Below are positions 1-12,074 of a stretch of DNA of 12,074 nucleotides, piece by piece. Positions within the stretch are counted from its first letter, which is position 1. Each line of letters opens with the position of its first letter. The translations under genes and the position numbers were made by a program. A model generated the notes under the pieces. That model did not search any database. It saw only the letters and a list, made by a program, of their open reading frames with translations, and was not told the DNA's origin. The stretch covers positions 1 through 12,074 of IMG/VR virus record IMGVR_UViG_2651869861_000010; one strand, 5' to 3'. The stretch is from a virus. Its lineage: Duplodnaviria; Heunggongvirae; Uroviricota; Caudoviricetes.

Positions 1-649
1 GCACCTTACCTGTCGCCACGCCGTTTACCGTAATTGTCATATCTTTCACACTAATGGTGGCTTTCGACGGATCGGCGGAAACCGCTCTGAACGTCTTGTC
101 TGTTGCACTTTCCGGCTCAAAAGAAACCGTCAGGGTGGTTGTTTTCCCTTTTGCCACCGTACCGGATGTCGGCGTCACCTTAATCGCACTGACCGGCGTA
201 ATTTTGCTGCGTTCTTCCGCTACAGAAGGTTTACCCACGTTAGTGACTTTCACCGTGCGGGTGATCACTTCTTTCGCCGTCACGGCCTTACCGATACTGC
301 TGACCCAGCCACGAAACACATCCACCGTGCCATTCGGAAAACGGATTTTATAGGCCCGGACATCGCCGCTTTCAAACCAGCCTATAAGCCCTTTCTGGCC
401 TTCCTCTCCCGGTTTCCAGGCCAGCGTAAAACTGGTATCACCTGCAGATTTCTGCCCCTGCCCGGTCGCGGTCCAGTCCGCGTCTTCATCATCCAGGTAG
501 TTATCATCGTAGGATTCTGCCGTCATCTCGCCCGGCGTCAGATCCTTCACCTTAGCCAGTCGCTGCCAGTCATCGTCTGACAACGGGTTTGCATAGGCGT
601 CACCCTGACCGTTATAAACCCACAGGGTGGTACCGGCTCCTTTTACCGG
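1..649 (-). pseudogene. V: Major tail protein V remnant. Homology starts at about V residue 9 ([10 protein letters not shown]...), there is no in-frame start codon, and the 3' end runs off the window at position 1.
   Basis: My own translation of the minus strand from about 649 downward gives [142 protein letters not shown]..., near-colinear with lambda gpV as I remember it. An in-frame TGA lies just upstream (about 704-706) and no ATG follows it. This frame is absent from the ORF track because it has no start. Confidence 0.8.
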
Positions 650-909
650 CTCCAGGGGAATTCGTGTTTCGGCTTGACGTAGCCCGGACGTAACACGCGG
701 GTTTCACCACCGCGATGACGCAGCACTTTTCCTTCAACAACCGGGGAGACATAGGCCGCCACCGGCGTTTTTCCGGTAATTTTGTCCAGCATCACCTCTT
801 CGGTATGGAAATTCACCGTACGGCGGAAAAACAGCTCCAGAAACAGCGCACGAAATTTCACTTTTTGTTCGGTATAACCGAGTAACTGGCGGGTCGTAAA
901 CAATCCCAT
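643..909 (-). pseudogene. E: Major capsid protein E, N-terminal fragment only (88 codons, then stop).
   Basis: The track ORF MGLFTTRQLLGYTEQKVKFRALFLELFFRR...PGYVKPKHE matches the lambda gpE N-terminus (MSMYTTAQLLAANEQKFKF...PGYVKPKHE) as remembered. After KHE the reading frame diverges and stops (FPWSR*). Lambda gpE is about 341 aa, so roughly 250 codons are missing. Confidence 0.85.
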
Positions 910-937
910 AAATCAGTTCCTTTCATTCAGAAATCAG

Positions 938-959
938 TCAGGCCACCGCGGTGGCCTGA
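938..959. repeat. 22-bp perfect palindrome TCAGGCCACCGCGGTGGCCTGA in the D-E' intergenic space.
   Basis: Read directly: the sequence equals its own reverse complement. It sits 8 nt downstream of the D stop and about 30 nt upstream of the E' ATG on the minus strand. Confidence 0.9.
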
Positions 960-966
960 TAACGTG

Positions 967-1314
967 TTACGGCAGCGCCGCGTGACTCAGGGCACTGCCG
1001 GCAAAGGCATTTGCCTTTTTGTGTTCATCCACACTTTCAGGCCAGCGGATTGCCTCCGTCGCAAAGGTCCCCGACTTGTAATAGGTCAGTACCGTCTCTG
1101 TGCCTTCAAGCGGCAGTACCAGTATGCCAACTGCACTACCGGCTTTCTGTCCGTCCCAGACCACCAGTTTCCCGCTGGCTTCATCCAGCATCAGGGGCGT
1201 CAGTGCCGGTGTTGCCGAGGAAATCCCGCTGCTGCCTGTGGCGGTATGAGCCGGATCATTACCGGCAAAAATACGTACTTCCGCACGCTGTTCAGTGATG
1301 TTTTTCGTTACCAT
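967..1314 (-). CDS. D: Head decoration protein D.
   Basis: The 115-aa ORF carries motifs I recognise from lambda gpD (DPAHTATG, TPLMLD, KSGTFA, AFAG). Its position between C and E is as in lambda. Confidence 0.9.
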   Translation of the reverse strand: MVTKNITEQRAEVRIFAGNDPAHTATGSSGISSATPALTPLMLDEASGKLVVWDGQKAGSAVGILVLPLEGTETVLTYYKSGTFATEAIRWPESVDEHKKANAFAGSALSHAALP

Positions 1315-1350
1315 ATTGTAAAAACCTCCTGTTGATGGTCAGCACTGACT

Positions 1351-2856
1351 TCATGGCATGGCCATGAGCATTTTCACGTCCGCATCACCGTCTGCTGACG
1401 TCTGTGGCACGCCACCCTGTACCGCAGCCGGTGAATGGTTCGCCATGATGCGTTCAAACAGGGCGGTTGTGGATGCAGAGACCGGTTCTGCCTTACCTGA
1501 TCCCGCAGCCAGCACAGCCCGGGCGCTCTCCACAGTCATTCCCGGGCAGGCAGCCAGCTGTTCAGCCTGCGCCTCAGCCCCTTTTGCCTCATCCAGTGCC
1601 ATGATCTGATCACGGAGTGAGGGTCCGGCATCCGCCTGCGGTGAAGCAGCCAGGATCGGGCGGGCTTTTTCCACCGTCATCTCCGGCATCGCCGCCAGCG
1701 TTGCCGCCAGTTGTTCACGACCGTTCGCTTCTTCACACGCCATAATGCGATCGGCTTCACTCTGCGTGGATGCCACCGGCTGCTGCGGTGCCGCCGCGGC
1801 CAGAATCGCCCGGGCCTGTTCAACGCTCATGCCCTGTTGTCCTGCCAGCATCGTGGCAAGCTGTTCACGTCCTTTCGCTTCCTGGCATGTCAGGATCCCC
1901 ATCACTCGCTGGTTCTCCTGCGCGGCGGCTTCCGTTGCAGTTAATTGCGGCATAGTGCCTCCTCTGACATTACTGTTCAGCGCCGTGGCCATCACACTGA
2001 TGGCATCCGACGCATTGACTAATTCATCCGCCAGCCCGGCATCAATGCCGGACTGACCTTCAAAAACGGCGGCCTCTGTTCCCGTGACGGCATCAACAGA
2101 CAGACCGGTAAACATGGCCACTTTTTCGGCAAACATCCGGCGCGCCGCATCAATGCGCTGCTGCATGTTCTGGCGAACCTCTGCCGGTAAGGCTTCAAAC
2201 TGATTGCCATCCACCTTGTGCGCCCCTGAGTAAATCAGCGTGATATCCACACCGGCCTGCGCCAGATGACCGGCATAGCTGACATGGCTCATCATCACGC
2301 CAATGGAGCCGATACGGGATGTCTGGGTAACCAGCCGTCGGGAGCAGGCCGACGCCAGCAGCATGGCTGCAGAACAGGCCGTGTCATTGCACAGTGCCCA
2401 GACCGGCTTCTGCTGACGGAGGCGGTAAATCATGTCAGCGCAGTCAAACGCGCCGGCGGCCTGCCCGCCCGGACTGTCAATGTCCAGCAGTACGCCCCGC
2501 ACCTGGCTATCCGCCATTGCCTGCTGAAGACAGGCGACAATGCCGTCATAGCCTGTCATTCCGGAAAATGGCCGCATACCCCCCAGCCGGTGCACCAGCG
2601 TGCCGGTCACCGGCAGTACAGCAATACCGTTCACCACCCGGTAAACACGGGCCGGTCGTTTACCTCCGGCCATGTACTCGTCCGTTTCAGCCAGCATTCC
2701 GGGAGCATCAAGCTGTACCTGCTGCTGTGGTACCGAAAGACTTGCTGCCCCCATCTCGCGCCCGAGCGCGCAAAAGAAAACCCGCGCATAGGCGGGCTCC
2801 AGAAGCAGCGGTTCATTGAATGCTGCGGCAATAATGTGTGAAAGATTACGTCTCAC
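1351..2856 (-). CDS. C: Capsid assembly protease C (S49/ClpP-like fold) with a C-terminal Nu3-like scaffold domain.
   Basis: The 501-aa ORF has an N-terminal 300 residues colinear with lambda gpC as remembered (AFNEPLLLEPAYARVFFCAL, VLPVTGTL, SGMTGY, DSPGG, PVWALCND, GSIGVMM, LIYSGAHKVDGN, GLADELVN). The C-terminal part contains three tandem repeats of the motif lambda carries once (RIMGIL-CEEA-GRE...PGMTV-ARRILAAAP). Confidence 0.9.
   Translation of the reverse strand: MRRNLSHIIAAAFNEPLLLEPAYARVFFCALGREMGAASLSVPQQQVQLDAPGMLAETDEYMAGGKRPARVYRVVNGIAVLPVTGTLVHRLGGMRPFSGMTGYDGIVACLQQAMADSQVRGVLLDIDSPGGQAAGAFDCADMIYRLRQQKPVWALCNDTACSAAMLLASACSRRLVTQTSRIGSIGVMMSHVSYAGHLAQAGVDITLIYSGAHKVDGNQFEALPAEVRQNMQQRIDAARRMFAEKVAMFTGLSVDAVTGTEAAVFEGQSGIDAGLADELVNASDAISVMATALNSNVRGGTMPQLTATEAAAQENQRVMGILTCQEAKGREQLATMLAGQQGMSVEQARAILAAAAPQQPVASTQSEADRIMACEEANGREQLAATLAAMPEMTVEKARPILAASPQADAGPSLRDQIMALDEAKGAEAQAEQLAACPGMTVESARAVLAAGSGKAEPVSASTTALFERIMANHSPAAVQGGVPQTSADGDADVKMLMAMP
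1498..1917. repeat. Three tandem, imperfect repeats of about 135 bp (about 45 codons) inside the 3' part of C.
   Basis: Protein repeats at about aa 314-356, 367-405 and 414-453: RVMGILTCQEAKGREQLATMLAGQQGMSVEQARAILAAAAP / RIMACEEANGREQLAATLAAMPEMTVEKARPILAASP / QIMALDEAKGAEAQAEQLAACPGMTVESARAVLAAGS. The corresponding DNA repeat (cagCTGTTCAcg...cgcttc...gccat) is visible at about 1556, 1711 and 1858. Confidence 0.8.
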
Positions 2857-4438
2857 GGGGTGTTGTCTCCTCTTCCGGCCTGCGACTCTCCGCTATCTGC
2901 TGCTGATACGCCTGCGCTATCCACACCGGACGTGAGAGTCCGGCTTTTTGCCGCTCTGCAGATTCCCTGACCTGCTGGCGGAAAATGTCCTGATAATCCT
3001 CGCCCATCAGCGCCGGCTCTTTCTCATACGTGCTCAGTCCGGCCTCAATGCGCATCACCGATTCCTGAACCTCCTTGAGCCCGTCAATGGCCATTCTTCC
3101 GGCACCAATCCACTCTGCCCGTGACCAGGCTGATCGCGCCTGATAAAAATCAAAACGCGCCCGTGGCGGACGGATAATCCCCCGAAGAAGTGCCTCTTCC
3201 AGCCAGTAGGAAAACATCTGCGTGGCCAGCCGGGCCGCAATAAATTTTCGCCGCCCCATAAAATAGCGCCACGACTCATTGGCAGAGGCCCTGGCACTTG
3301 AATAACTGACCTTCGAGTAATCACGGGACAACTGTTCGTAGGAAACGCCAAGACCGGCGGCGATATACCGCAGCAGCGCCTGTTCAAGCGCCGAAAATCC
3401 ATTGTCTGAATCCTGCGCAGTCTGTAGTTTCAGATCATCCCCGGGGAAAAGGTGCGGAATTTTGACACCACCCAGCGTCACGTTATTCGTGTCATACCAG
3501 CTGGAGAACTTCTCCAGAATATTAATAAGCGGATTATCCTTCTGCCCCTGCGGCGCACCGGCGATATATTCAAAGGCCTTTTCGGTATCAAGGTCACTTT
3601 CAATCGTCGCTGCATACATGGCTTTCACAATGGCCGACTGAAGCTGTGTTGCCTGCAGGGAATCGAGCATCTTCAGCCGTTCCATGACGCTGTAAAACTG
3701 GTTGGCCCCACGGGTCTGCCCGTCCTCCACCGGCTCGAAAATATGCAGCATGGCCGGACGCCCGGTGGGAAGTTCACGCGGGATCCGTTCCCATCGTCCA
3801 CTCCCGGAGCGAGGAAAATCATCCTCACAGATATGGTACGCAACGGCACGGCCATATCGATCGACCTCCACCCCGGCCCGCAGAAAACGGTTCCCCATAC
3901 CGTGTCCTGGCGTGTCCACCCGTTTCGGACTCACGGCTTTAAAACGCGTACGGAATAACTGCGTGGTTTCCGTATCCCAGACCGGCTGCACAAAGATTTC
4001 GCCGTTAAACGCATGAACGCCCACACCTTCACGGATAAATTCCGTGAACGTGCGTTTTCCTTCCACGTCGATCTCGCCAGACATCCCTTCGGCGTATTCC
4101 GACCAGGCCGCCTCCACCTCATCGACAAAGCTTTTTGCTGCGGTCTCCCGCATCCCCAGCCAGCGCCAGTTCGGACGGTAGCTGATAAGAAACATATGCC
4201 CGACAATGTGATCCTTATGCAGTGCCACCGCATTGGCCGCTATTCCGTTATTGCGCACCAGATCATCTGCCCGGGCATTCCCCAGACGCAACGCGGGCAG
4301 CAGGGCCGCATCGGCACTCTGCGCCGGTGGCAACCACTCCGCCATTTGCCCGCCAAATCCTGCACCGCCCCCGTTGTAGCTGAGACTCTCACGAAGCGGA
4401 ACGCCGTTCACATCAATCAGGACAGGCGTTCGTTTCAT
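2846..4438 (-). CDS. B: Portal protein B.
   Basis: The 530-aa ORF is colinear with lambda gpB (NGIAANAV, FEPVEDGQTRGAN, LQSAIVKAMYAATIES, LLRYIAAGLGVSYEQLSR, IDGLKEVQE, EAGLSTYEKE). Its start overlaps the W stop (ATGA) and its 3' end overlaps the C start by 11 nt. Confidence 0.92.
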   Translation of the reverse strand: MKRTPVLIDVNGVPLRESLSYNGGGAGFGGQMAEWLPPAQSADAALLPALRLGNARADDLVRNNGIAANAVALHKDHIVGHMFLISYRPNWRWLGMRETAAKSFVDEVEAAWSEYAEGMSGEIDVEGKRTFTEFIREGVGVHAFNGEIFVQPVWDTETTQLFRTRFKAVSPKRVDTPGHGMGNRFLRAGVEVDRYGRAVAYHICEDDFPRSGSGRWERIPRELPTGRPAMLHIFEPVEDGQTRGANQFYSVMERLKMLDSLQATQLQSAIVKAMYAATIESDLDTEKAFEYIAGAPQGQKDNPLINILEKFSSWYDTNNVTLGGVKIPHLFPGDDLKLQTAQDSDNGFSALEQALLRYIAAGLGVSYEQLSRDYSKVSYSSARASANESWRYFMGRRKFIAARLATQMFSYWLEEALLRGIIRPPRARFDFYQARSAWSRAEWIGAGRMAIDGLKEVQESVMRIEAGLSTYEKEPALMGEDYQDIFRQQVRESAERQKAGLSRPVWIAQAYQQQIAESRRPEEETTPRET

Positions 4439-4641
4439 AACCTCACTCCCAGCGGACGACGGCGACGCCGGGTTGTCCCCAGTACCGACTCCGCATCATT
4501 GATCGCCCGGTTAAGCTCATCCAGAGAAGCCGCCGTATATTCAATTCTGCGACCATCTTTCTGGACAGACACCACCCGTTTACCGGTTAATAAATCAAGG
4601 CGCGCCTGACGCAGCGCCTGCAGTTCAGCGACTGTAACCAT
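4435..4641 (-). CDS. W: Head-tail joining / head completion protein W.
   Basis: The 68-aa ORF matches the length and core of lambda gpW (LTGKRVVSVQKDGRRIEYTAASL, TTRRRRRP). It overlaps the 3' end of A by 17 nt. Confidence 0.9.
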   Translation of the reverse strand: MVTVAELQALRQARLDLLTGKRVVSVQKDGRRIEYTAASLDELNRAINDAESVLGTTRRRRRPLGVRL

Positions 4642-6553
4642 TCACTCCTCCGGACAGCTTCGCTGCCAGTTCTTTCAGGGTTGGCCGGGTCGTCTCTTCT
4701 TCCCGGGATTTTGCCAGTACAGCCAGATCAAGCTGCCAGCGTTGCACGGACACACGTAATGCCGCGTAGGCATACACCAGGCAGTCCAGCGCTTCGTTAC
4801 GCCGCTTTTTGTTATCCCACAGCAGACGCATCTTTCCTTTTTCCCACTTCTCCACCAGCTCTTCCGCCACCAGTTGCTGCGCCTCTGTCTGCGAAAAAAT
4901 CTCCGGATCATCAGGAAAACGGATGGCATACGACGTGGCTTCATCCGCAGGCGAGGGATCGGCTTTCATACGGGCATAGAGAATTTCTTTTGCGGTGTCC
5001 GTTCCCACTTCACACAGATACACGCCCCGCTGATTGCGGGTTTTTGGCATGGTGATCACCGGCTTGCCATAGACAGATGCGCCTTTTACCGGCAGCACCC
5101 GGAAAACACCGTGTTTTTTTGATCTCTGATAAACAATTTCACCATCGATCCCCCCGGTGTCCCAGCAGACACGGGAAATAGTCATTTCGGTGCCATCCGC
5201 ATGGCGGTATTTTTTGTTGATCGCCGCATCCACACGTAACAGCGTCTCTTCCTCATCAGGACGCCCCATAATGATGATTTTATCCACCAGAAAGGCTTCC
5301 TCTCCCGGAGCCCATCCCCAGACATACATCTCAAAACGGTTTCGCTGCGAGTCAATGCCCGCCGTCAGATAAACCACCCGGGCAGGCACCGCCGCCGTGT
5401 AACGCACCACCTTATCCATCAGTACCTGGTGATCGAGTTTTTCGCCCACGGCCTCTTCCCAGGTCTCGCCCAGCGTGGTGTTCACAAAGGTTTTCAGGCC
5501 GTTGGGATCTTTCAGTGCATCCAGCCAGTCATAGACAATCTGTACCCAGGTGGTGAACGGACTGTACGCCGTCCAGATATGGAACATGATGGAGCGCGGC
5601 GGCGGAATTTCATCACCCCGGGCGCTGAAAAACGTCAGACCGTCACGGGTCCACATGCCCGTGTTTTCACAGATCCACCGCCCGTTGCTCTGGTCCAGTT
5701 CAGACTGATGGATCACGCAGCCATGATGTTCACAGAGGTAGAAAACACTTTCAGGGCTGTCCTTCTCCCATTTAAGCCCAAAAGGCGTGGACTCATCGCC
5801 AAATTTCAGATACTGCGCCTCCCCACAGTGCGGGCAGGGCACATAAAAACGCATAAAATGCGCCGACTCGTTAGCGGCTTTTTCGATCTGGCAGGTGCCT
5901 TTGATTTTAGGCGTCGAGCCGCGAATGGATTTTGGCCACACCGACCCCTCAATACGCTTATCCCCCAGCAGGGTTGGCGAGCCCTCTTTTTCGACATCCG
6001 GCTCGAACGAGGAAAGTTCGTCATAGCAGACCACGTCAACGGATTTTTCACGGTAGTTTTTGGCGGCAGCGCCGCCCAGGCACCAGAAACCGACGCCCGA
6101 TGAAAAGCGTTTCAGCGTGAGAGTATTGTCACGATGTTTACGACCCAGCCATGGGGAAAGGTCTTTCAGGCATGGCACGTTCCGAATCGTCGCCTCCACG
6201 TGAGACTTCATAAAATCTTCAGCGGCAGAATCCGTGGGCTGAAAAAGCAGACTGTTTCGGGATTTATGCTCAATAAAATACCCGCCCCCCCCCAGCAACA
6301 TCTTTGTATAGCCAACACGGGCAGATTTAATCAGATTAACAGTGCGGATCTGATCATTCCCCATACTGTTCATGATGGCGATCTGGAATGGCAGCGTTTT
6401 CCATTCGCCCTCACCATATGAAGATTCTTTAGGCAGATAATAATTTTGATCAGCCCATTCAACTGGCGTCACCGGCAATGCCCTTATCAGGGGCTGTAAT
6501 GCAGTTGTGACAGCGCTCATCATATTATTCAGTTGTTGCTCTGATATATTCAT
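4625..6553 (-). CDS. A: Terminase large subunit A. The likely start is the internal ATG giving MNISEQQ..., not the extended ORF start at 6610.
   Basis: Colinear with lambda gpA along its whole length (EWADQNYYLPKESSYGEGEWKT, FWCLGGAAAKNYREKSVD, GSPTLLGDKRIEGSVWPKSIRGSTPK, HFMRFYVPCPHCGE, TAYSPFTTWVQIV, ICWDTGGID, KKRRNEALDC). The lambda protein begins MNIS...; the 19 upstream codons in the track ORF overlap Nu1. Confidence 0.93.
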   Translation of the reverse strand: MNISEQQLNNMMSAVTTALQPLIRALPVTPVEWADQNYYLPKESSYGEGEWKTLPFQIAIMNSMGNDQIRTVNLIKSARVGYTKMLLGGGGYFIEHKSRNSLLFQPTDSAAEDFMKSHVEATIRNVPCLKDLSPWLGRKHRDNTLTLKRFSSGVGFWCLGGAAAKNYREKSVDVVCYDELSSFEPDVEKEGSPTLLGDKRIEGSVWPKSIRGSTPKIKGTCQIEKAANESAHFMRFYVPCPHCGEAQYLKFGDESTPFGLKWEKDSPESVFYLCEHHGCVIHQSELDQSNGRWICENTGMWTRDGLTFFSARGDEIPPPRSIMFHIWTAYSPFTTWVQIVYDWLDALKDPNGLKTFVNTTLGETWEEAVGEKLDHQVLMDKVVRYTAAVPARVVYLTAGIDSQRNRFEMYVWGWAPGEEAFLVDKIIIMGRPDEEETLLRVDAAINKKYRHADGTEMTISRVCWDTGGIDGEIVYQRSKKHGVFRVLPVKGASVYGKPVITMPKTRNQRGVYLCEVGTDTAKEILYARMKADPSPADEATSYAIRFPDDPEIFSQTEAQQLVAEELVEKWEKGKMRLLWDNKKRRNEALDCLVYAYAALRVSVQRWQLDLAVLAKSREEETTRPTLKELAAKLSGGVNGYSR

Positions 6554-7034
6554 CAAGTAAATCCGGTAATTTATCCCCTGCCCGCGCACACTGATTTGCC
6601 CCCTTAGCAATAAGGGTTTTCAGATGGTCAAGATGGCGCGGTGTTAAATCAGGAAACTGTCGCTGCATGGATAAAGGGATGGAATCAAGCGTACTGGATA
6701 ACGCCATTGCCAGCTTACTGAGGGCAAAAATACAGAACCCGGTGTCAATCAGTTTTCCTTTTGACACCTCATTTTTTAACTGCTGTGTAACAGCCTGTTC
6801 TGCTGTCAGTTCCCATCTGGCAATAAGCAATTTCTCCTCATAGTCGTCTTCGCTATCGCCATCAGGCACATCGTTTTTACTTCTCCTCAGATACGATATG
6901 TAAAAATCGCGCCAGGCATCCAGATCCAGTTGCCCTCGCTTATTCGATATCGGGGCACCCGGCAATTTCTGCAATCTGCGAAGCTGGCGATCGGTCAGAC
7001 TTAAATGCCTGGCAACTTCAGTCTGCGTAGCCAC
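6525..7034 (-). CDS. Nu1: Terminase small subunit, Nu1-like. The C-terminal half is lambda-like, the N-terminal helix-turn-helix DNA-binding domain is divergent, and the start codon is GTG.
   Basis: The C-terminal half (TGFCIFALSKLAMALSSTLDSIPLSMQRQFPDLTPRHLDHLK...LPDLLDEYI) resembles lambda gpNu1 (TAFCTFVLSRIAGEIASILDGLPLSVQRRFPELENRHVDFLK...IPGLLSEYI). The N-terminus (MATQTEVARHLSLTDRQLRRLQKL) is an HTH unlike lambda's. The start reads GTG on the minus strand (cac at 7032-7034) with GAGGTGAGGA just upstream. It overlaps A by 29 nt, as in lambda. Confidence 0.8.
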   Translation of the reverse strand: MATQTEVARHLSLTDRQLRRLQKLPGAPISNKRGQLDLDAWRDFYISYLRRSKNDVPDGDSEDDYEEKLLIARWELTAEQAVTQQLKNEVSKGKLIDTGFCIFALSKLAMALSSTLDSIPLSMQRQFPDLTPRHLDHLKTLIAKGANQCARAGDKLPDLLDEYIRATTE

Positions 7035-7074
7035 TCCTCACCTCGCAAAAACTCTCACCTCACAATCACAACAA

Positions 7075-7180
7075 AACCGGTCATGTCCGGTTTACATGTC
7101 TGTTTTTTGTTCATGTCCGGTTCACAGAAGACCTGTTTTTATATTTTTCATATAGTTAACTTGAAGAGAAACCGGACATG
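7075..7180. repeat. cosB-like array: three copies of the 11-mer CATGTCCGGTT (7082-7092 and 7112-7122 direct; 7170-7180 inverted), with an AT-rich spacer that is a possible IHF bend site.
   Basis: Read directly. The first copy is part of a near-palindrome AACCGGTCATGTCCGGTT (7075-7092). The array sits between cosN and the Nu1 start, where lambda has its R3-I1-R2-R1 small-terminase binding sites. Confidence 0.55.
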
Positions 7181-7217
7181 GATCCCGGAAAATTTTCATA
7201 AATAGCGAAAACCCGCG

Positions 7218-7229
7218 AGGTCGCCGCCC
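7218..7229 (-). other. cos: cosN, the 12-nt cohesive-end site (GGGCGGCGACCT on the minus strand), with lambda-like flanks.
   Basis: The reverse complement of 7201-7260 reads CGGGTCCTTTCCGGCGATCCGACAGGTTACG-GGGCGGCGACCT-CGCGGGTTTTCGCTATT, which is the lambda right-end/left-end junction with one mismatch in the flank, as I remember the lambda ends. Confidence 0.85.
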
Positions 7230-7265
7230 CGTAACCTGTCGGATCGCCGGAAAGGACCCGCAAAA

Positions 7266-7280
7266 TGATAATAATTATCA
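7266..7280. promoter_or_regulatory. 15-bp perfect palindrome TGATAATAATTATCA, identical to the 7-1-7 Fur-box consensus (TGATAATnATTATCA).
   Basis: Read directly. It lies about 37 bp from cosN on the side away from Nu1. I recall lambda having TGATAATCATTATCA at the equivalent place, i.e. a different centre base with both arms preserved. Confidence 0.4.
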
Positions 7281-7428
7281 TCTACATGTCACAACGTGCA
7301 TCTACGCCATCAAACCACGTCAAATAATTAATTATGACGCAGGTATCGTATTAATTGATCTGCATCAACTTAACGTAAAAACAACTTCAGACAATACAAA
7401 TCAGCGACACTGAATACGGGGCAACCTC

Positions 7429-7623
7429 ATGTCAACGAAGAACAGAACCCGCAGAACAACAACCCGCAACATCCGCTTTCCTAACCAAATGATTGAACAA
7501 ATTAACATCGCTCTTGATCAAAAAGGGTCCGGAAATTTCTCAGCCTGGGTCATTGAAGCCTGCCGTCGGAGGCTAACGTCAGAAAAGAGAGCATATACAT
7601 CAATTAAAAGTGATGAAGAATGA
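7429..7623 (+). CDS. ylcI: Small ribbon-helix-helix-like protein (64 aa), YlcI/DUF3950-like.
   Basis: The 64-aa ORF has a basic N-terminus (KNRTRRTTTRN), then a predicted beta-strand and two helices (IRFPNQMIEQINIALDQ...NFSAWVIEACRRRL). Size and position next to cos match ylcI of DLP12-type prophages as I remember them. Confidence 0.65.
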   Translation: MSTKNRTRRTTTRNIRFPNQMIEQINIALDQKGSGNFSAWVIEACRRRLTSEKRAYTSIKSDEE

Positions 7624-7723
7624 ACATCCCGCGTTCTTCCCTCCGAACAGGACGATATTGTAAATTCACTTAATTACGAGGGCATTGCAGTAATTGAGTT
7701 GCAGTTTTACCACTTTCCTGACA

Positions 7724-7751
7724 GTGACAGACTGCGTGTTGGCTCTGTCAC
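7724..7751. terminator. Candidate bidirectional hairpin between the convergent ylcI-like and ybcW-like genes.
   Basis: Stem GTGACAGA (7724-7731), 12-nt loop, stem TCTGTCAC (7744-7751). The flanking T/A runs are modest. Confidence 0.35.
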
Positions 7752-7787
7752 AGGTTAAGTAGTTTGAATGATTAGCAGTTATGGTGA

Positions 7788-7994
7788 TCAGTCAACCACC
7801 AGGGAATAATCCTTCATATTATTATCGTGCTTCACCAACGCTGCCTCAATTGCCCTGAATGCTTCCAGAGACACCTTATGTTCTATACATGCAATTACAA
7901 CATCAGGGTAACTCATAGAAATGGTGCTATTAAGCATATTTTTTACACGAATCAGATCCACGGAGGGATCATCAGCAGATTGTTCTTTATTCAT
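7788..7994 (-). CDS. ybcW: Small hypothetical protein (68 aa), YbcW-like.
   Basis: The 68-aa ORF has an ATG start at 7994, lies in an AT-rich context, and matches the remembered size and position of ybcW in DLP12-type prophages. No function can be inferred from the sequence. Confidence 0.6.
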
Positions 7995-8279
7995 TTTGTC
8001 GCTCCATGCGCTTGCTCTTCATCTAGCGGTTAAAATATTACTTCAAATCTTTCTGTATGAAGATTTGAGCACGTTGGCCTTACATACATCTGTCGGTTGT
8101 ATTTCCCTCCAGAATGCCAGCAGGACCGCACTTTGTTACGCAACCAATACTATTAATTGAAAACATTCCTAATATTTGACATAAATCATCAACAAAACAC
8201 AAAGAGGTCAGACCAGATTGAAACGATAAAAACGATAATGCAAACTACGCGCCCTCGTATCACATGGAAGGTTTTACCA

Positions 8280-8690
8280 ATGGCTCAGGTTGCCATTTTT
8301 AAAGAAATATTCGATCAAGTGCGAAAAGATTTAAACTGTGAATTGTTTTATTCTGAACTAAAACGTCACAATGTCTCACATTATATTTACTATCTAGCCA
8401 CAGATAATATTCACATTGTGTTAGAAAACGATAACACTGTGTTAATAAAAGGACTTAAAAAGGTTGTGAATGTTAAATTCTCAAGAAATACGCATCTTAT
8501 AGAAACGTCCTATGATAGGTTGAAATCAAGAGAAATCACATTTCAGCAATACAGGGAAAATCTTGCTAAAGCAGGAGTTTTCCGATGGGTTACAAATATC
8601 CACGAACATAAAAGATATTACTATGCCTTTGATAATTCATTACTATTTACTGAGAGCATTCAGAACACTACACAAATCTTTCCACGCTAA
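8280..8690 (+). CDS. ybcV: Hypothetical protein (136 aa from [10 protein letters not shown]...), YbcV/DUF1398-like. The track ORF start at 8157 is probably an N-terminal over-extension.
   Basis: The ATG at 8280 is preceded by GGAAGG at a suitable spacing and gives 136 aa, which is the remembered size of YbcV. The region is strongly AT-rich. The alternative starts at 8157 and 8238 lack a convincing ribosome-binding site. Confidence 0.6.
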
Positions 8691-8981
8691 ATCATCACGT
8701 CCGGTTTCTTCCGTGTCAGCACCGGGGCGTTGGCATAATGCAATACGTGTACGCGCTAAACCCTGTGTGCATCGTTATTAATTATTCCCGGACACTCCCG
8801 CAGAGGAGTTTCCCTGTCAGGGCTGCGGACATAGTTAATCCGGGAATACAGTGACGATCCTTCGCATCTGACATACATTAATAAATATTAACAATATGAG
8901 ATTTCAACTCATTGTTTAGGGTTTGTTTAATTTTCTACACATACGATTCTGCGAACTTTAAAAAGCATCGGGAATAACACC

Positions 8982-9275
8982 ATGAAAAAAATGCTACTCG
9001 CTACTGCGCTGGCCCTGCTTATTACAGGATGTGCCCAACAGACGTTTACTGTTCAAAACAAACCGGCAGCAGTAACACCAAAGGAAACCATCACCCACCA
9101 TTTCTTCGTCTCTGGAATTGGGCAGAAGAAAACTGTCGATGCAGCTAAAATTTGTGGCGGCGCAGAAAATGTTGTTAAAACAGAAACCCAGCAAACATTC
9201 GTAAATGGATTGCTCGGTTTTATTACTTTAGGCATTTATACTCCGCTGGAAGCGCGTGTGTATTGCTCACAATAA
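8982..9275 (+). CDS. bor: Bor outer-membrane lipoprotein (serum-resistance moron), on the opposite strand to the late operon.
   Basis: The 97-aa ORF has a lipoprotein signal peptide with lipobox (LLITGC) and matches lambda Bor (MKKMLLATALALLITGCAQQTFTVQNKPAAV...YTPLEARVYCSQ) at essentially every residue I can recall. Confidence 0.93.
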   Translation: MKKMLLATALALLITGCAQQTFTVQNKPAAVTPKETITHHFFVSGIGQKKTVDAAKICGGAENVVKTETQQTFVNGLLGFITLGIYTPLEARVYCSQ

Positions 9276-9306
9276 TTGCATGAGCTGCCCATCGATATGG
9301 GCAGCT

Positions 9307-9768
9307 CTATCTGCACTGCTCATTAATATACTTCTGGGTTCCTTCCAGTTGTTTTTGCATAGTGATCAGCCTCTCTCTGAGGGTGAAATAATCCCGTTCA
9401 GCGGTGTCTGCCAGTCGGGGGGAGGCTGCATTATCCACGCCGGAGGCGGTGGTGGCTTCACGCACTGACTGACAGACTGCTTTGATGTGCAACCGACGAC
9501 GACCAGCGGCAACATCATCATGCAGAGCATCATTTTCAGCTTTCGCATCAGCTAACTCCTTCGTGTATTTTGCATCGAGCGCAGCAACATCACGCTGACG
9601 CATCTGCATGTCAGTAATTGCCACGTTCGCCAGCTTCAGTTCTCTGGCATTTTTGTCGCGCTGGGCTTTGTAGGTAATGGCGTTATCACGGTAATGATTA
9701 ACAGCCCATGACAGGCAGACGATGATGCAGATGAGCAGAGCGGAGATAATCGCGGTTATTCTGCTCAT
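9307..9768 (-). CDS. Rz: Rz, the inner-membrane spanin subunit (i-spanin).
   Basis: The 153-aa ORF matches lambda Rz ([48 protein letters not shown]...KYINEQCR). Its ATG overlaps the R stop (ATGA). Confidence 0.93.
9366..9548 (-). CDS. Rz1: Rz1, the outer-membrane lipoprotein spanin subunit (o-spanin), embedded in the +1 frame of Rz.
   Basis: The 60-aa ORF has a lipobox (VVGCTS) and a proline-rich stretch ([18 protein letters not shown]) and matches lambda Rz1. It lies entirely inside Rz. Confidence 0.9.
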
Positions 9769-10241
9769 ACCTCACTCTCTCTGACCGTTCCGCCAGCTTC
9801 TTTGAATTTTGCAATCAGGCTGTCAGCCTTATGCTCGAACTGACCATAACCAGCGCCCGGCAGTGAAGCCCAGATATTACTGCAACGGTCGATTGCCTGA
9901 CGGATATCACCGCGATCAATCATAGGTAAAGCACCACGCTCTTTAATCTGCTGCAATGCCACTGCGTCCTGGCTTTTGGGGGAGAAGTCTTTCAAACCAA
10001 GCTGTTTACGGTAAGCATCCCACCAGCGTGAAAGAAGCTGATAACGTCCGGCGGCTGTTGATTTGAGTTTGGGGTGTAGCGTGACAAGTTTGCGAGGGTG
10101 ATCGGAGTAATCAGTAAACAGTTCGCCGCCAACAATAACATCATAACCGTGGTTACGTGTCGGTTGTCGCCCGTTATCCGTTCCTTCTGACCACGCCAAC
10201 ATATCGAGGAAGGCTTTACGCTGAGGATTAAGATTTTGCAT
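9765..10241 (-). CDS. R: Endolysin R (lambda-type lytic transglycosylase).
   Basis: The 158-aa ORF ([49 protein letters not shown]...[21 protein letters not shown]) is nearly identical to lambda R. Its start lies 14 nt inside the holin 3' end. Confidence 0.95.
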
Positions 10242-10545
10242 TTTTCACCCCTGTCAGTCGTTCCCAGAAGTACGTCAGTGCAACCGAACCCATCGCACCA
10301 CTAATCCCCGCTGTCGCGAGAATCATGTAAATACTGAATCCACTTTCGATGCTGATCAGGCCACCAATAACACCGGTGAATCCTGATACCACTATTTGAG
10401 CCAGAGCATTTATCCAACTCCACGTTGCTTTACTCTGCTTCACATCTATCAGGTAGCGGACCAGACCGCCCCAACCTGCGATGATCAGCAAAACGAGCCA
10501 GAACGCTCCGGCAAGGCTCTCTTTTTCGTGCATATGAATAGCCAA
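10228..10545 (-). CDS. Class I holin with three predicted transmembrane segments, not lambda S-like. The first codon of the ORF is TTG and the first ATG is codon 5 (10531-10533).
   Basis: Three hydrophobic stretches (LAGAFWLVLLIIAGWGGLV; WINALAQIVVSGFTGVIGGLI; FSIYMILATAGISGAMGSVAL) are followed by a charged C-terminal tail, and the gene sits immediately upstream of R. The minus strand reads TTG GCT ATT CAT ATG CAC... The sequence is unrelated to lambda S. Confidence 0.8.
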   Translation of the reverse strand: MAIHMHEKESLAGAFWLVLLIIAGWGGLVRYLIDVKQSKATWSWINALAQIVVSGFTGVIGGLISIESGFSIYMILATAGISGAMGSVALTYFWERLTGVKNAKS

Positions 10546-10647
10546 TGTTTCGCCGCCGACAAAAGGCCGGGACGTTAAATGTCAGAAATCAGGCTCACGG
10601 GGTAATTTAACGACAAAGCACGGAGTTGATGCTCCCCACAAGCCTGG

Positions 10648-10673
10648 AATAAAAAAGCCAGCATGTAGCTGGC
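10648..10673 (-). terminator. tR'-like intrinsic terminator on the minus strand.
   Basis: Stem GCCAGC (10657-10662), loop ATGTA, stem GCTGGC (10668-10673). On the minus strand the hairpin is followed by TTTTTTATT (complement of 10648-10656). It lies about 185 nt downstream of the candidate PR'. Confidence 0.6.
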
Positions 10674-10842
10674 AACAGAGGGCTAAGCAATATCAACTCA
10701 ACAGCTGAAGACCCCCTGGCTGGGGTAGGTTGGAAGGCTACTCACCGTTCAGAAACAGAAAAGCCCAAGGCTTTAAACCTCGGGCTTGAATTTGGATTAC
10801 TGCCAGTGCGTACAACATTGGCAAAATATCAGATTTACATAA

Positions 10843-10871
10843 AATATATGATTTTTAATCCAGTTTTGCAA
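10843..10871 (-). promoter_or_regulatory. Candidate late promoter PR': -35 TTGCAA (10866-10871), 17-bp spacer, -10 TATATT (10843-10848), overlapping the Q stop codon.
   Basis: Hexamers read directly on the minus strand. The position at the 3' end of Q, upstream of a terminator about 185 nt away, mirrors the lambda PR'-qut-6S RNA-tR' arrangement. Confidence 0.4.
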
Positions 10872-11544
10872 TATCTTGCTGTGAAAATGTGGTCTTTTGT
10901 TTTGAACGTGTTTTCGTTAAAAGCAATAAAGCTTGGCTATCAAGCTGTAGAAAAATGTGTTTCATTGCAACCCAGCGTTCAGTAAATGTCTCAGACCAGT
11001 TTTTTGATGTCACTCCCACCAGTGATGCCAGCTCCTGGTATTCATAGGTCTTACGCCCTGCCAGCTCGTTCTTCACATCCTGTGCCGCCAGCCAGATCAA
11101 CTTCTTCAAACGTTCCAGTGTCTTACCTGCAATTTTCCTGGTACCCAACAGAGTCTTAAACTCGCTCCATGCCCACTGCGTTATGGTGACCTGATGTTCC
11201 CAGCGAACACTTTCGCTGTAACTCCACAGCAACCACGCTTTCTGATGTTCTTCGAGAGACAGAACCGCGCGGCGCCATGACGAGGTTGAGAACTCAACCT
11301 GGCTGACCAGTGCAATGGATGAACCTTTTGCGTACGACTGCTTACCGGAAATCGGCGGATTATCCAGCGTAATCATCCTGCCAGTTACCTCATCCAGAAT
11401 GCGCGGCTTCTTTCGTTTGTATGTACCAGTATCAAATTGTGCATGCTCCAGCCAGGCTTCAAGCTGTCCTTTCGTTGCTCCGCTCAAATCAGCGGTAGCC
11501 ACAATGAGTTGCTCGCGGACATACTGTAAATATTGGGTATTCAT
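10855..11544 (-). CDS. Putative late-gene antiterminator (Q-like by position), not lambda-Q type and cysteine-free.
   Basis: The 229-aa ORF lies directly between rusA/ylcG and the PR'/tR'/holin region, the canonical Q position. It has no similarity to lambda Q as remembered, and it has no Cys residues, so no zinc finger. The family assignment is not verified. Confidence 0.5.
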   Translation of the reverse strand: MNTQYLQYVREQLIVATADLSGATKGQLEAWLEHAQFDTGTYKRKKPRILDEVTGRMITLDNPPISGKQSYAKGSSIALVSQVEFSTSSWRRAVLSLEEHQKAWLLWSYSESVRWEHQVTITQWAWSEFKTLLGTRKIAGKTLERLKKLIWLAAQDVKNELAGRKTYEYQELASLVGVTSKNWSETFTERWVAMKHIFLQLDSQALLLLTKTRSKQKTTFSQQDIAKLD

Positions 11545-11681
11545 GCGGCAGCTCCTTTCAGTGTTTTGGCGTAATTCTTCAGTATCCGGTAATCGGTCAA
11601 AACAGAACCAGGAAAACGATATAAGCGCAGGCGCATCCAGCGGTGGCGAAGACGTTCTGCCATATAAGACTCAAACATCAT
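11541..11681 (-). CDS. ylcG: YlcG-like 46-aa protein, found by manual translation (below the ORF-track size cutoff).
   Basis: The minus strand translates to [46 protein letters not shown], closely resembling E. coli DLP12 YlcG as remembered. Its ATG overlaps the rusA stop and its TGA overlaps the Q ATG. Confidence 0.7.
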
Positions 11682-12040
11682 TCATTCCCCAGTTCGGTGA
11701 TGGTCAGCTCCAGCTTCCCACCTTTGGTAACGGGCATCTTCACAACACGGTAATCAACGACCTGAGCATCATCCAGCCAGAAACCTGCTTTGGTGAGTGC
11801 GTCAAAAGCGGCTTTTTGCAGATTATCCAGGTCACGGCGACGGCGATCCGGCATGTGGCACTCAATACGGATTTTCACTGGCATAGCCAGGCCGATATCC
11901 AGCATGGAGCCTTTGATGATTCGGGCGACGTTATCACGGTATGCCTGCCCTTCTGCGCTGATGTGCGTGCGCCCGCGATTATGCCGGTAGTAGCGATTAT
12001 TGCTCGGAGGCCAGGGTAATGTGATGCTGTAGGTATTCAC
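11678..12040 (-). CDS. rusA: RusA Holliday-junction resolvase (GTG start).
   Basis: The 120-aa ORF ([26 protein letters not shown]...[42 protein letters not shown]) is nearly identical to E. coli RusA as remembered. The start codon reads GTG (cac at 12038-12040), with GAGGGGG upstream. Confidence 0.92.
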
Positions 12041-12074
12041 GCCTTAATAACCCCCTCTTTCAGCCAGATAACCT

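Follow-up and report, generated by a model that had tools for sequence, protein, structure and literature searches.

The prophage window described here shares the gene order of the lambda and phage 21 late operons, Nu1-A-W-B-C-D-E-FI-FII-Z-U-V; both of these are complete plaque-forming phages, whereas the window is without E codons 85-342, FI, FII, Z, U and the start of V. Decay of the same kind, in which morphogenesis genes are deleted internally and the lysis cassette is kept, is known from E. coli K-12, where DLP12 and further lambdoid prophages carry deletions. In DLP12 hardly any structural genes are left after nohD, whereas the window loses only the stretch from the 3' part of E to the 5' part of V; its right half carries DLP12-type genes that PGAP names ylcI, ybcW, ybcV, bor, rzpD, ylcG and rusA. 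An interruption of E at almost the same codon is found in the helper-embedded PICI (HE-PICI) class 11capE, and the stumps hold 82-84 native residues (in an 88-89-aa ORF) in both cases. There, a 10.7-kb element with an integrase lies between the E halves and excises precisely; the window, by contrast, contains no insertion and has permanently lost 2.5 kb of helper genes, with a crossover that falls outside the att identity block.

Two prophages of E. coli O157 Sakai, Sp4 and Sp14, were described by Asadulghani et al. (2009), who re-evaluated 18 prophages of this strain (PMC2669165). Their Table 1 scores both as portal +, head D and major tail D, and differs in the score for DNA packaging, which is D for Sp4 and + for Sp14. 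The nu1 gene of Sp4 is broken by an IS, identified as ISEc8 in their Figure S8, and the Nu1 proteins and cos sites are identical between Sp4 and Sp14. Both prophages circularize only after mitomycin C, via regional replication by their neighbors Sp5 and Sp15. Sp4 DNA was packaged at a low level, for which the authors credit complementation and suggest the Sp14 terminase, while Sp14 DNA was not found packaged. Sp4 was marked and tested and is absent from the four prophages with marker transfer; Sp14 was unmarked. The defects of both prophages are given in that paper in a table and figures, and we did not find exact endpoints stated in its text (PMC2669165).

The window, meaning the whole stretch of DNA analyzed here, comprises the 12,074 nucleotides of IMG/VR record IMGVR_UViG_2651869861_000010. 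From its open reading frames and their translations it is a lambdoid prophage late region, read along the minus strand in the order rusA, ylcG, Q, holin, endolysin, Rz/Rz1, Nu1, A, W, B, C, D, a short E ORF and V, with bor, ybcV and ylcI (plus strand) and ybcW (minus strand) sitting between Rz/Rz1 and Nu1. The features from Nu1 to V, in the direction of reading, are as follows.

6525-7034, minus strand: Nu1, intact, 169 aa
4625-6553, minus strand: A, terminase large subunit, intact, 642 aa
4435-4641, minus strand: W, intact
2846-4438, minus strand: B, portal, intact, 530 aa
1351-2856, minus strand: C, S49 protease/scaffold, intact, 501 aa
967-1314, minus strand: D, head decoration gene, intact, 115 aa (PGAP WP_000256723.1, "head decoration protein"; Pfam HDPD)
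643-909, minus strand: E', pseudogene, 88-codon ORF with its TAA at 645-643
659-668: deletion junction and microhomology block, 10 nt, crossover at the block edge
658-663: GAATTC (EcoRI site), combining V-side G658 with E-side AATTC
1-661, minus strand: V', tail-tube gene without codons 1-5, ATG and ribosome-binding site

D lies directly upstream of E'. Across the head and packaging genes (1351-7034), O157 loci have identical gene lengths and Pfam families, and the holin, endolysin, Rz/Rz1 and Q are also intact in the window. The terminase, portal, protease/scaffold, decoration and lysis genes had been predicted to be intact, and their lengths and sequences do equal those of annotated intact genes. 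The lysis cassette derives from another O157 prophage than the head genes, as described below, so that the "intact lysis genes" represent a different prophage module. Within the terminase gene A there is a run of nine C at 6285-6293 (G9 on the coding strand). In many O157 assemblies (L001, L006, L007, L008, L010, L014 and L030) the run is longer by one or two C and A is thereby frameshifted, labeled "frameshifted" by PGAP in strain TR01; in L012 and L029 the run has the length seen in the window. Such differences may stem from homopolymer errors of long reads or reflect true variation in length. Between D and E, in the intergenic stretch immediately before the start of the capsid gene, the minus strand at 938-959 holds a perfect GC-rich hairpin, UCAGGCCACCGCGGUGGCCUGA, followed by CTGATTTCTG. 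The surrounding 51 nt (925-975) fold with -18.4 kcal/mol and a z of -3.1, and the element looks like a weak terminator or an mRNA-stabilizing element.

The extent of the loss was defined against intact relatives in three complete E. coli genomes, PapRG-06-5 (L002), 14EC001 (L003) and UTME-9 (L004), whose prophages carry the full E-FI-FII-Z-U-V set between both flanks. Positions 659-1400 of the window are 99.9% identical to the E-D region of 14EC001, and positions 1-668 are 98% identical to its V gene. The missing DNA amounts to 2,513 bp relative to 14EC001 and 2,554 bp relative to PapRG-06-5 and UTME-9, in keeping with the approximately 2.5 kb that the original prediction had estimated from the lambda gene order. 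The deletion takes E codons 85-342, FI, FII, Z, U and 14 nt of V, and everything from the last base of V codon 5 onward is retained. Three-way alignment with the relatives places the crossover at base 659, with V-type sequence up to 659 and E-type sequence from 659, and no inserted DNA is present at the join when the window is aligned with both flanks of the three relatives. The 32-mer for the deletion is GGCTCCAGGGGAATTCGTGTTTCGGCTTGACG. A deletion junction at which a truncated E is joined to a 5'-truncated V, with FI, FII, Z and U lost, was the central claim of the original prediction, and it is borne out by these comparisons.

On the E side, what remains is 84 codons of a phage-21/lambda-type major capsid gene followed by four foreign codons (PWSR) and a stop, codons 85-88 being V-region DNA read out of frame. 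The earlier count of 88 retained E codons is corrected accordingly: the truncation stands, with 84 native codons and the last four from V-region DNA. Residues 1-84 match residues 1-84 of lambda gpE (7vi9; E 1e-23), and at the DNA level the phage 21 capsid gene shares 98% identity with the fragment over 102 nt. Against Pfam Phage_cap_E (PF03864), E' aligns to profile positions 1-80 of 329 only (E 1.5e-14), whereas an intact relative spans positions 1-329 and the full domain measures approximately 341 aa. Judged by this coverage, E' is a gene fragment short of the full-length capsid domain and is predicted to be no functional member of the gpE family; PGAP likewise labels it "major capsid protein, incomplete, missing C-terminus".

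On the V side, the reading frame runs approximately 80 nt past the left end of the window and matches residues 6-224 of lambda gpV (6p3e; E 2e-113), which together with the gpE match over residues 1-84 confirms the identity of both genes. It contains a complete Phage_TTP_12 domain (PF16461, positions 1-135 of 135, E 1.4e-69) and a Big_2 domain. The frame is colinear with gpV as predicted, with a different starting point: measured against the native V of intact relatives, colinearity begins at base 659, the last base of codon 5, and not near position 649 at V residue 9. The native start of V in 14EC001 reads MSTPNPLEPVKG, and both its ATG (L003 2673-2671) and the upstream GAGGA fall within the deleted DNA. 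Reading the V frame from the upstream stop to the first internal Met, there is no ATG, GTG or TTG, which agrees with the prediction of a V gene without a start; only the first five codons are gone. PGAP starts V' at the ATT at 661-659 and derives a CDS of 741 nt encoding a 246-aa "phage tail protein", WP_029208397.1. This ATT is a junction-made codon, native codon 5 being AAT, and since it exists only through the deletion junction, the WP_029208397.1 entry hides a pseudogene. The V frame is -1 relative to E' and overlaps it by 19 nt, with four C's within the overlap (C-CCC, 658-655). With the canonical start and Shine-Dalgarno sequence missing, we infer that V' expression would be lost, and there is a small possibility that the junction-made ATT and the C-CCC run may leave a trace of it. 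Sp4-type loci have intact tail genes, G to J, farther downstream.

The two parental sites agree at 8 of 10 positions in register at 659-668 (plus strand A[T/A]TT[G/C]GTGTT). On the plus strand the V side reads ATTTGGTGTT and the E side AATTCGTGTT; on the coding strand the E parent reads AACACGAATT (codons 81-84) and the V parent AACACCAAAT (codons 3-5). Only 0.058% of in-register V x E 10-mer pairs in 14EC001 match at 8 of 10 positions or better, a figure to be read with a 10-nt frame that was picked after the junction was seen. The nearest intact V flank is 98% identical to the window with two differences within 25 nt of the junction, and the microhomology therefore assumes a true parent that resembled 14EC001 at 659-668. 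The GAATTC at 658-663, which had been noticed as lying on the junction, is present and was created by the join. The parental sequences at this site are AAATTC in E and GATTTG in V; the EcoRI site is a by-product of the join because G658 is V-derived and AATTC is E-derived. Alignment to intact lambdoid prophages, which had been proposed as a check, has in this way defined both the endpoints and the 8/10 microhomology.

A 201-nt probe across the junction (560-760) was found end to end at 100% identity in 300 of the 5,426 complete E. coli genomes, and 1,613 other complete genomes match the V half or the E half only. Among the matches listed, the junction genomes are O157:H7 or unlabeled strains from similar sources. 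The exact 88-aa E' product occurs in 9,344 blocks of public assemblies, and the junction is present in nine IMG/VR contigs, all identical to the O157 type. No junction-spanning record was found among 50,697 isolated phage records, and no exact junction match among GTDB species-representative genomes. Every genome with the E'-V' adjacency has a truncated E. The original prediction could have been overturned by intact-headed relatives sharing the E-V adjacency, and the zero of 50,697 phage records, together with the constant association of this adjacency with a truncated E, goes against such relatives; a living phage with this arrangement was accordingly rejected as a candidate.

Four genomes with both copies listed, CP051816, CP018241, CP041747 and CP066753, each contain the junction twice (pairs L006/L007, L008/L009, L011/L012 and L013/L014). 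The two copies differ at nu1, where one has ISEc8 inserted and the other is intact, and both are identical to the window over approximately 7.5 kb except for ISEc8 and the length of one C-run. The same lesion in two prophages identical over approximately 7.5 kb points to duplication or gene conversion after the deletion arose. The ISEc8 copy would correspond to Sp4 and the nu1-intact copy to Sp14, because the descriptions in PMC2669165 match the two copies found. Sp4 shares the E'-V' junction and the phage-21-type head genes, and the window is 100% identical to it over 1-6779 and 6772-7464, whereas nu1 is disrupted by ISEc8 in Sp4 and uninterrupted in the window. The 8-bp ISEc8 target (6772-6779) is present once in the window and is empty. 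Sp14 shares the E'-V' junction and the intact nu1 and A, and the window shows no differences from its copy L012 over 1-7520. Upstream of nu1, Sp14 carries genes for a 74-aa DUF3950 protein, PerC, Rz/Rz1, a 177-aa lysozyme, a DUF1327 protein and a class II holin, whereas the window differs there. CP-933M and CP-933U are the EDL933 equivalents of Sp4 and Sp14. The E'-V' lesion is thus the already known head and tail defect of Sp4 and Sp14, and a head-defective prophage, as the locus had been called from its sequence, is what the published head score of D describes (PMC2669165). The accompanying question of what mitomycin C induction yields is answered by the same study: circularization, and low-level packaging of Sp4 by complementation.

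The window as a whole resembles a join of two prophages. No complete genome holds at least 80% of it in one place. Positions 1-7520 have no differences from the Sp14-type copy L012, positions 7362-12074 have none from an icd-adjacent O157 prophage (L017), and the window diverges from L007, L008 and L012 from 7521 on. Both matches share 159 bp (7362-7520) in the 5' part of ylcI, and the switch therefore lies there. To the right of 7520 the window carries the genes of the icd-adjacent prophage, namely ylcI, ybcW, ybcV, bor, Rz, a GH24 endolysin, holin, Q and rusA. The two parent prophages are inverted and approximately 1 Mb apart in CP051816, and only the two parental arrangements appear around the exact YlcI protein and around the E' product. 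The hybrid is either a real inter-prophage recombinant, in which case a large inversion would follow, or a short-read misassembly across the 159-bp repeat. The E'-V' junction lies 6.7 kb from the switch, inside the part identical to hundreds of genomes, so the deletion finding is unaffected by this choice. Elsewhere in the right half, an IS target between ybcV and bor (8833-8836) is empty in the window and in L017 and holds IS1203/IS629 in L005 and L022. An IS1203 copy between ybcV and bor and ISEc8 in nu1 are common in O157 genomes, and both are absent from the window.

The position of the breakpoint in E was also compared with the integration site of known satellites. A further capsid stump (L023 1-1662), of 89 aa and from a lambda-type prophage, ends in ...PGYVKPKH and is followed by an integrase, and this adjacency of integrase and E stump occurs in 174 complete E. 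coli genomes. In E. coli O2:K2:H1 C 237-04 (L035 10700-21433) an approximately 10.7-kb satellite splits E in two. Its gene content includes int, alpA, two Abi genes, ylcI, an Icd-like gene, primase and ssb genes, as well as E-like capsid, D-like decoration and Nu1-like small terminase genes. This element belongs to the published helper-embedded PICI class 11capE, with the site E:Phage_cap_E:80 (Barth et al. 2023, PMC10111431). For this element the identity block is the 10-bp AACCCAAGCA, which corresponds to E codons 79-82. The equivalent block in phage-21-type E is AAGCCGAAACA (675-665 in the window).

Several other readings of the junction were weighed. That it is an artefact of sequencing, assembly or EcoRI cloning, and that the true locus has a full-length capsid gene, is suggested by the failure of the whole window to match any complete genome and its likeness to a two-prophage join, which makes assembly errors possible, and by a GAATTC placed exactly on the join. 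However, the suspect join of the window lies 6.7 kb away at 7362-7520, and 300 complete genomes from independent sequencing and the nine IMG/VR contigs all share an identical junction, which each of the four inspected genomes has at two loci. These observations refute an error of sequencing or assembly at the junction, including one splitting a full-length capsid gene, which had been named as a way in which the prediction might fail; a cloning artefact is refuted by the parental origin of the EcoRI site base by base and by its presence in natural isolates. The artefact reading is left with practically no probability. Under a satellite origin, the deletion would be an HE-PICI scar at E:Phage_cap_E:80, in which aberrant integrase activity or attR-side damage removed the stretch from the 3' part of E to the 5' part of V and the satellite was then lost. 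This would fit the splitting of lambda-type E at AACCCAAGCA by the approximately 10.7-kb satellite in 174 complete genomes, and the O157 crossover (659) lies only 5-6 nt 3' of the equivalent block, the microhomology overlapping the block by 4 nt. PICIs are moreover associated with variable-length deletions from a fixed site in tRNA attR fragments (PMC10111431). Yet E joins directly to V with no satellite DNA between them, the HE-PICI arm motif TGTATTGCANTGTGTATTGC (the doubled TGTATTGC motif) has no matches in the window with up to three mismatches allowed, and three of the 10 positions in AAGCCGAAACA deviate from the satellite core. The E-native CGAAT is kept between the block and the crossover, so the exchange can have taken place neither within the block nor between attL and some secondary site. 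A query of attR arm, core and 24 nt of E gave no alignment that stops just after the core among the matches listed (60 of 743 records); these all run into E (46 genomes in all) or begin inside E. The coincidence of breakpoints was, furthermore, noticed after the fact. A satellite origin is therefore not supported, given that no remnant is left, that the crossover falls outside the att block and that the listed matches show no truncation on the attR side, and we consider such a scar very unlikely. Equally doubtful is the corollary that the E breakpoint is non-random and the deletion collateral damage from a satellite once resident in the capsid gene; if true, permanent prophage decay in O157:H7 would have satellites among its causes.

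A different possibility holds that the E'-V' arrangement is functional, with V translated from the ATT at 661-659, by coupling to translation of E', an ORF that would be translated at a high level, or by -1 slippage on C-CCC (658-655), which would yield an E(1-85)-V fusion. V' would then feed tail tube protein to the O157 prophage pool. The 246-aa protein annotated by PGAP from this ATT, the completeness of its tail-tube domain, the -1 frame with four C's in the 19-nt overlap and the intact genes G to J downstream are all compatible with such a role, as is the fact that all O157 copies seen retain the lesion. In a young lineage, however, clonal descent predicts the same conservation, which is thus no evidence of selection. 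No Shine-Dalgarno sequence precedes the ATT, itself a very weak start, and the E'/V' overlap contains no canonical slippery heptamer. U and Z, required for finishing tails, are deleted, and the major tail function is scored defective in PMC2669165. We regard a functional E'-V' arrangement as highly improbable. The window very probably carries a fixed 2.5-kb late-operon deletion in a lambdoid prophage with phage-21-type head genes, the same lesion as in Sp4 and Sp14.

The anatomy, endpoints, microhomology, distribution and double occurrence per genome are observed directly; for the origin of this fixed deletion, we infer the following mechanism and order of events. In an ancestral prophage of the phage-21 type, one illegitimate recombination event guided by microhomology, between short imperfect matches in E and V, may have removed the 3' three quarters of E, FI, FII, Z, U, the V ribosome-binding site and the first five V codons. 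Duplication or inter-prophage recombination would then have brought the lesion into another prophage on the same chromosome, and clonal inheritance may have maintained it afterwards.

To the published account of Sp4 and Sp14, the present analysis adds the loss of 2,513 bp, a crossover at an 8/10 microhomology, an EcoRI site and an ATT made by the join, and the presence of two identical copies in each of the four genomes inspected. It also adds that the intact-looking 246-aa "phage tail protein" of PGAP starts at a deletion-made codon. Without E, the prophage cannot build capsids. FII, Z and U, which complete heads and tails, are missing from the locus as well, as is FI, an accessory protein of DNA packaging, and, judging from the lost start of V, tail tube protein is probably not made. 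With capsid, completion and packaging-accessory functions gone, such a prophage could spread only if other prophages supply them. The lesion explains why Sp4 and Sp14 make no particles of their own and rely on the "defective prophage pool" of O157, a dependence that was analyzed experimentally in 2009.
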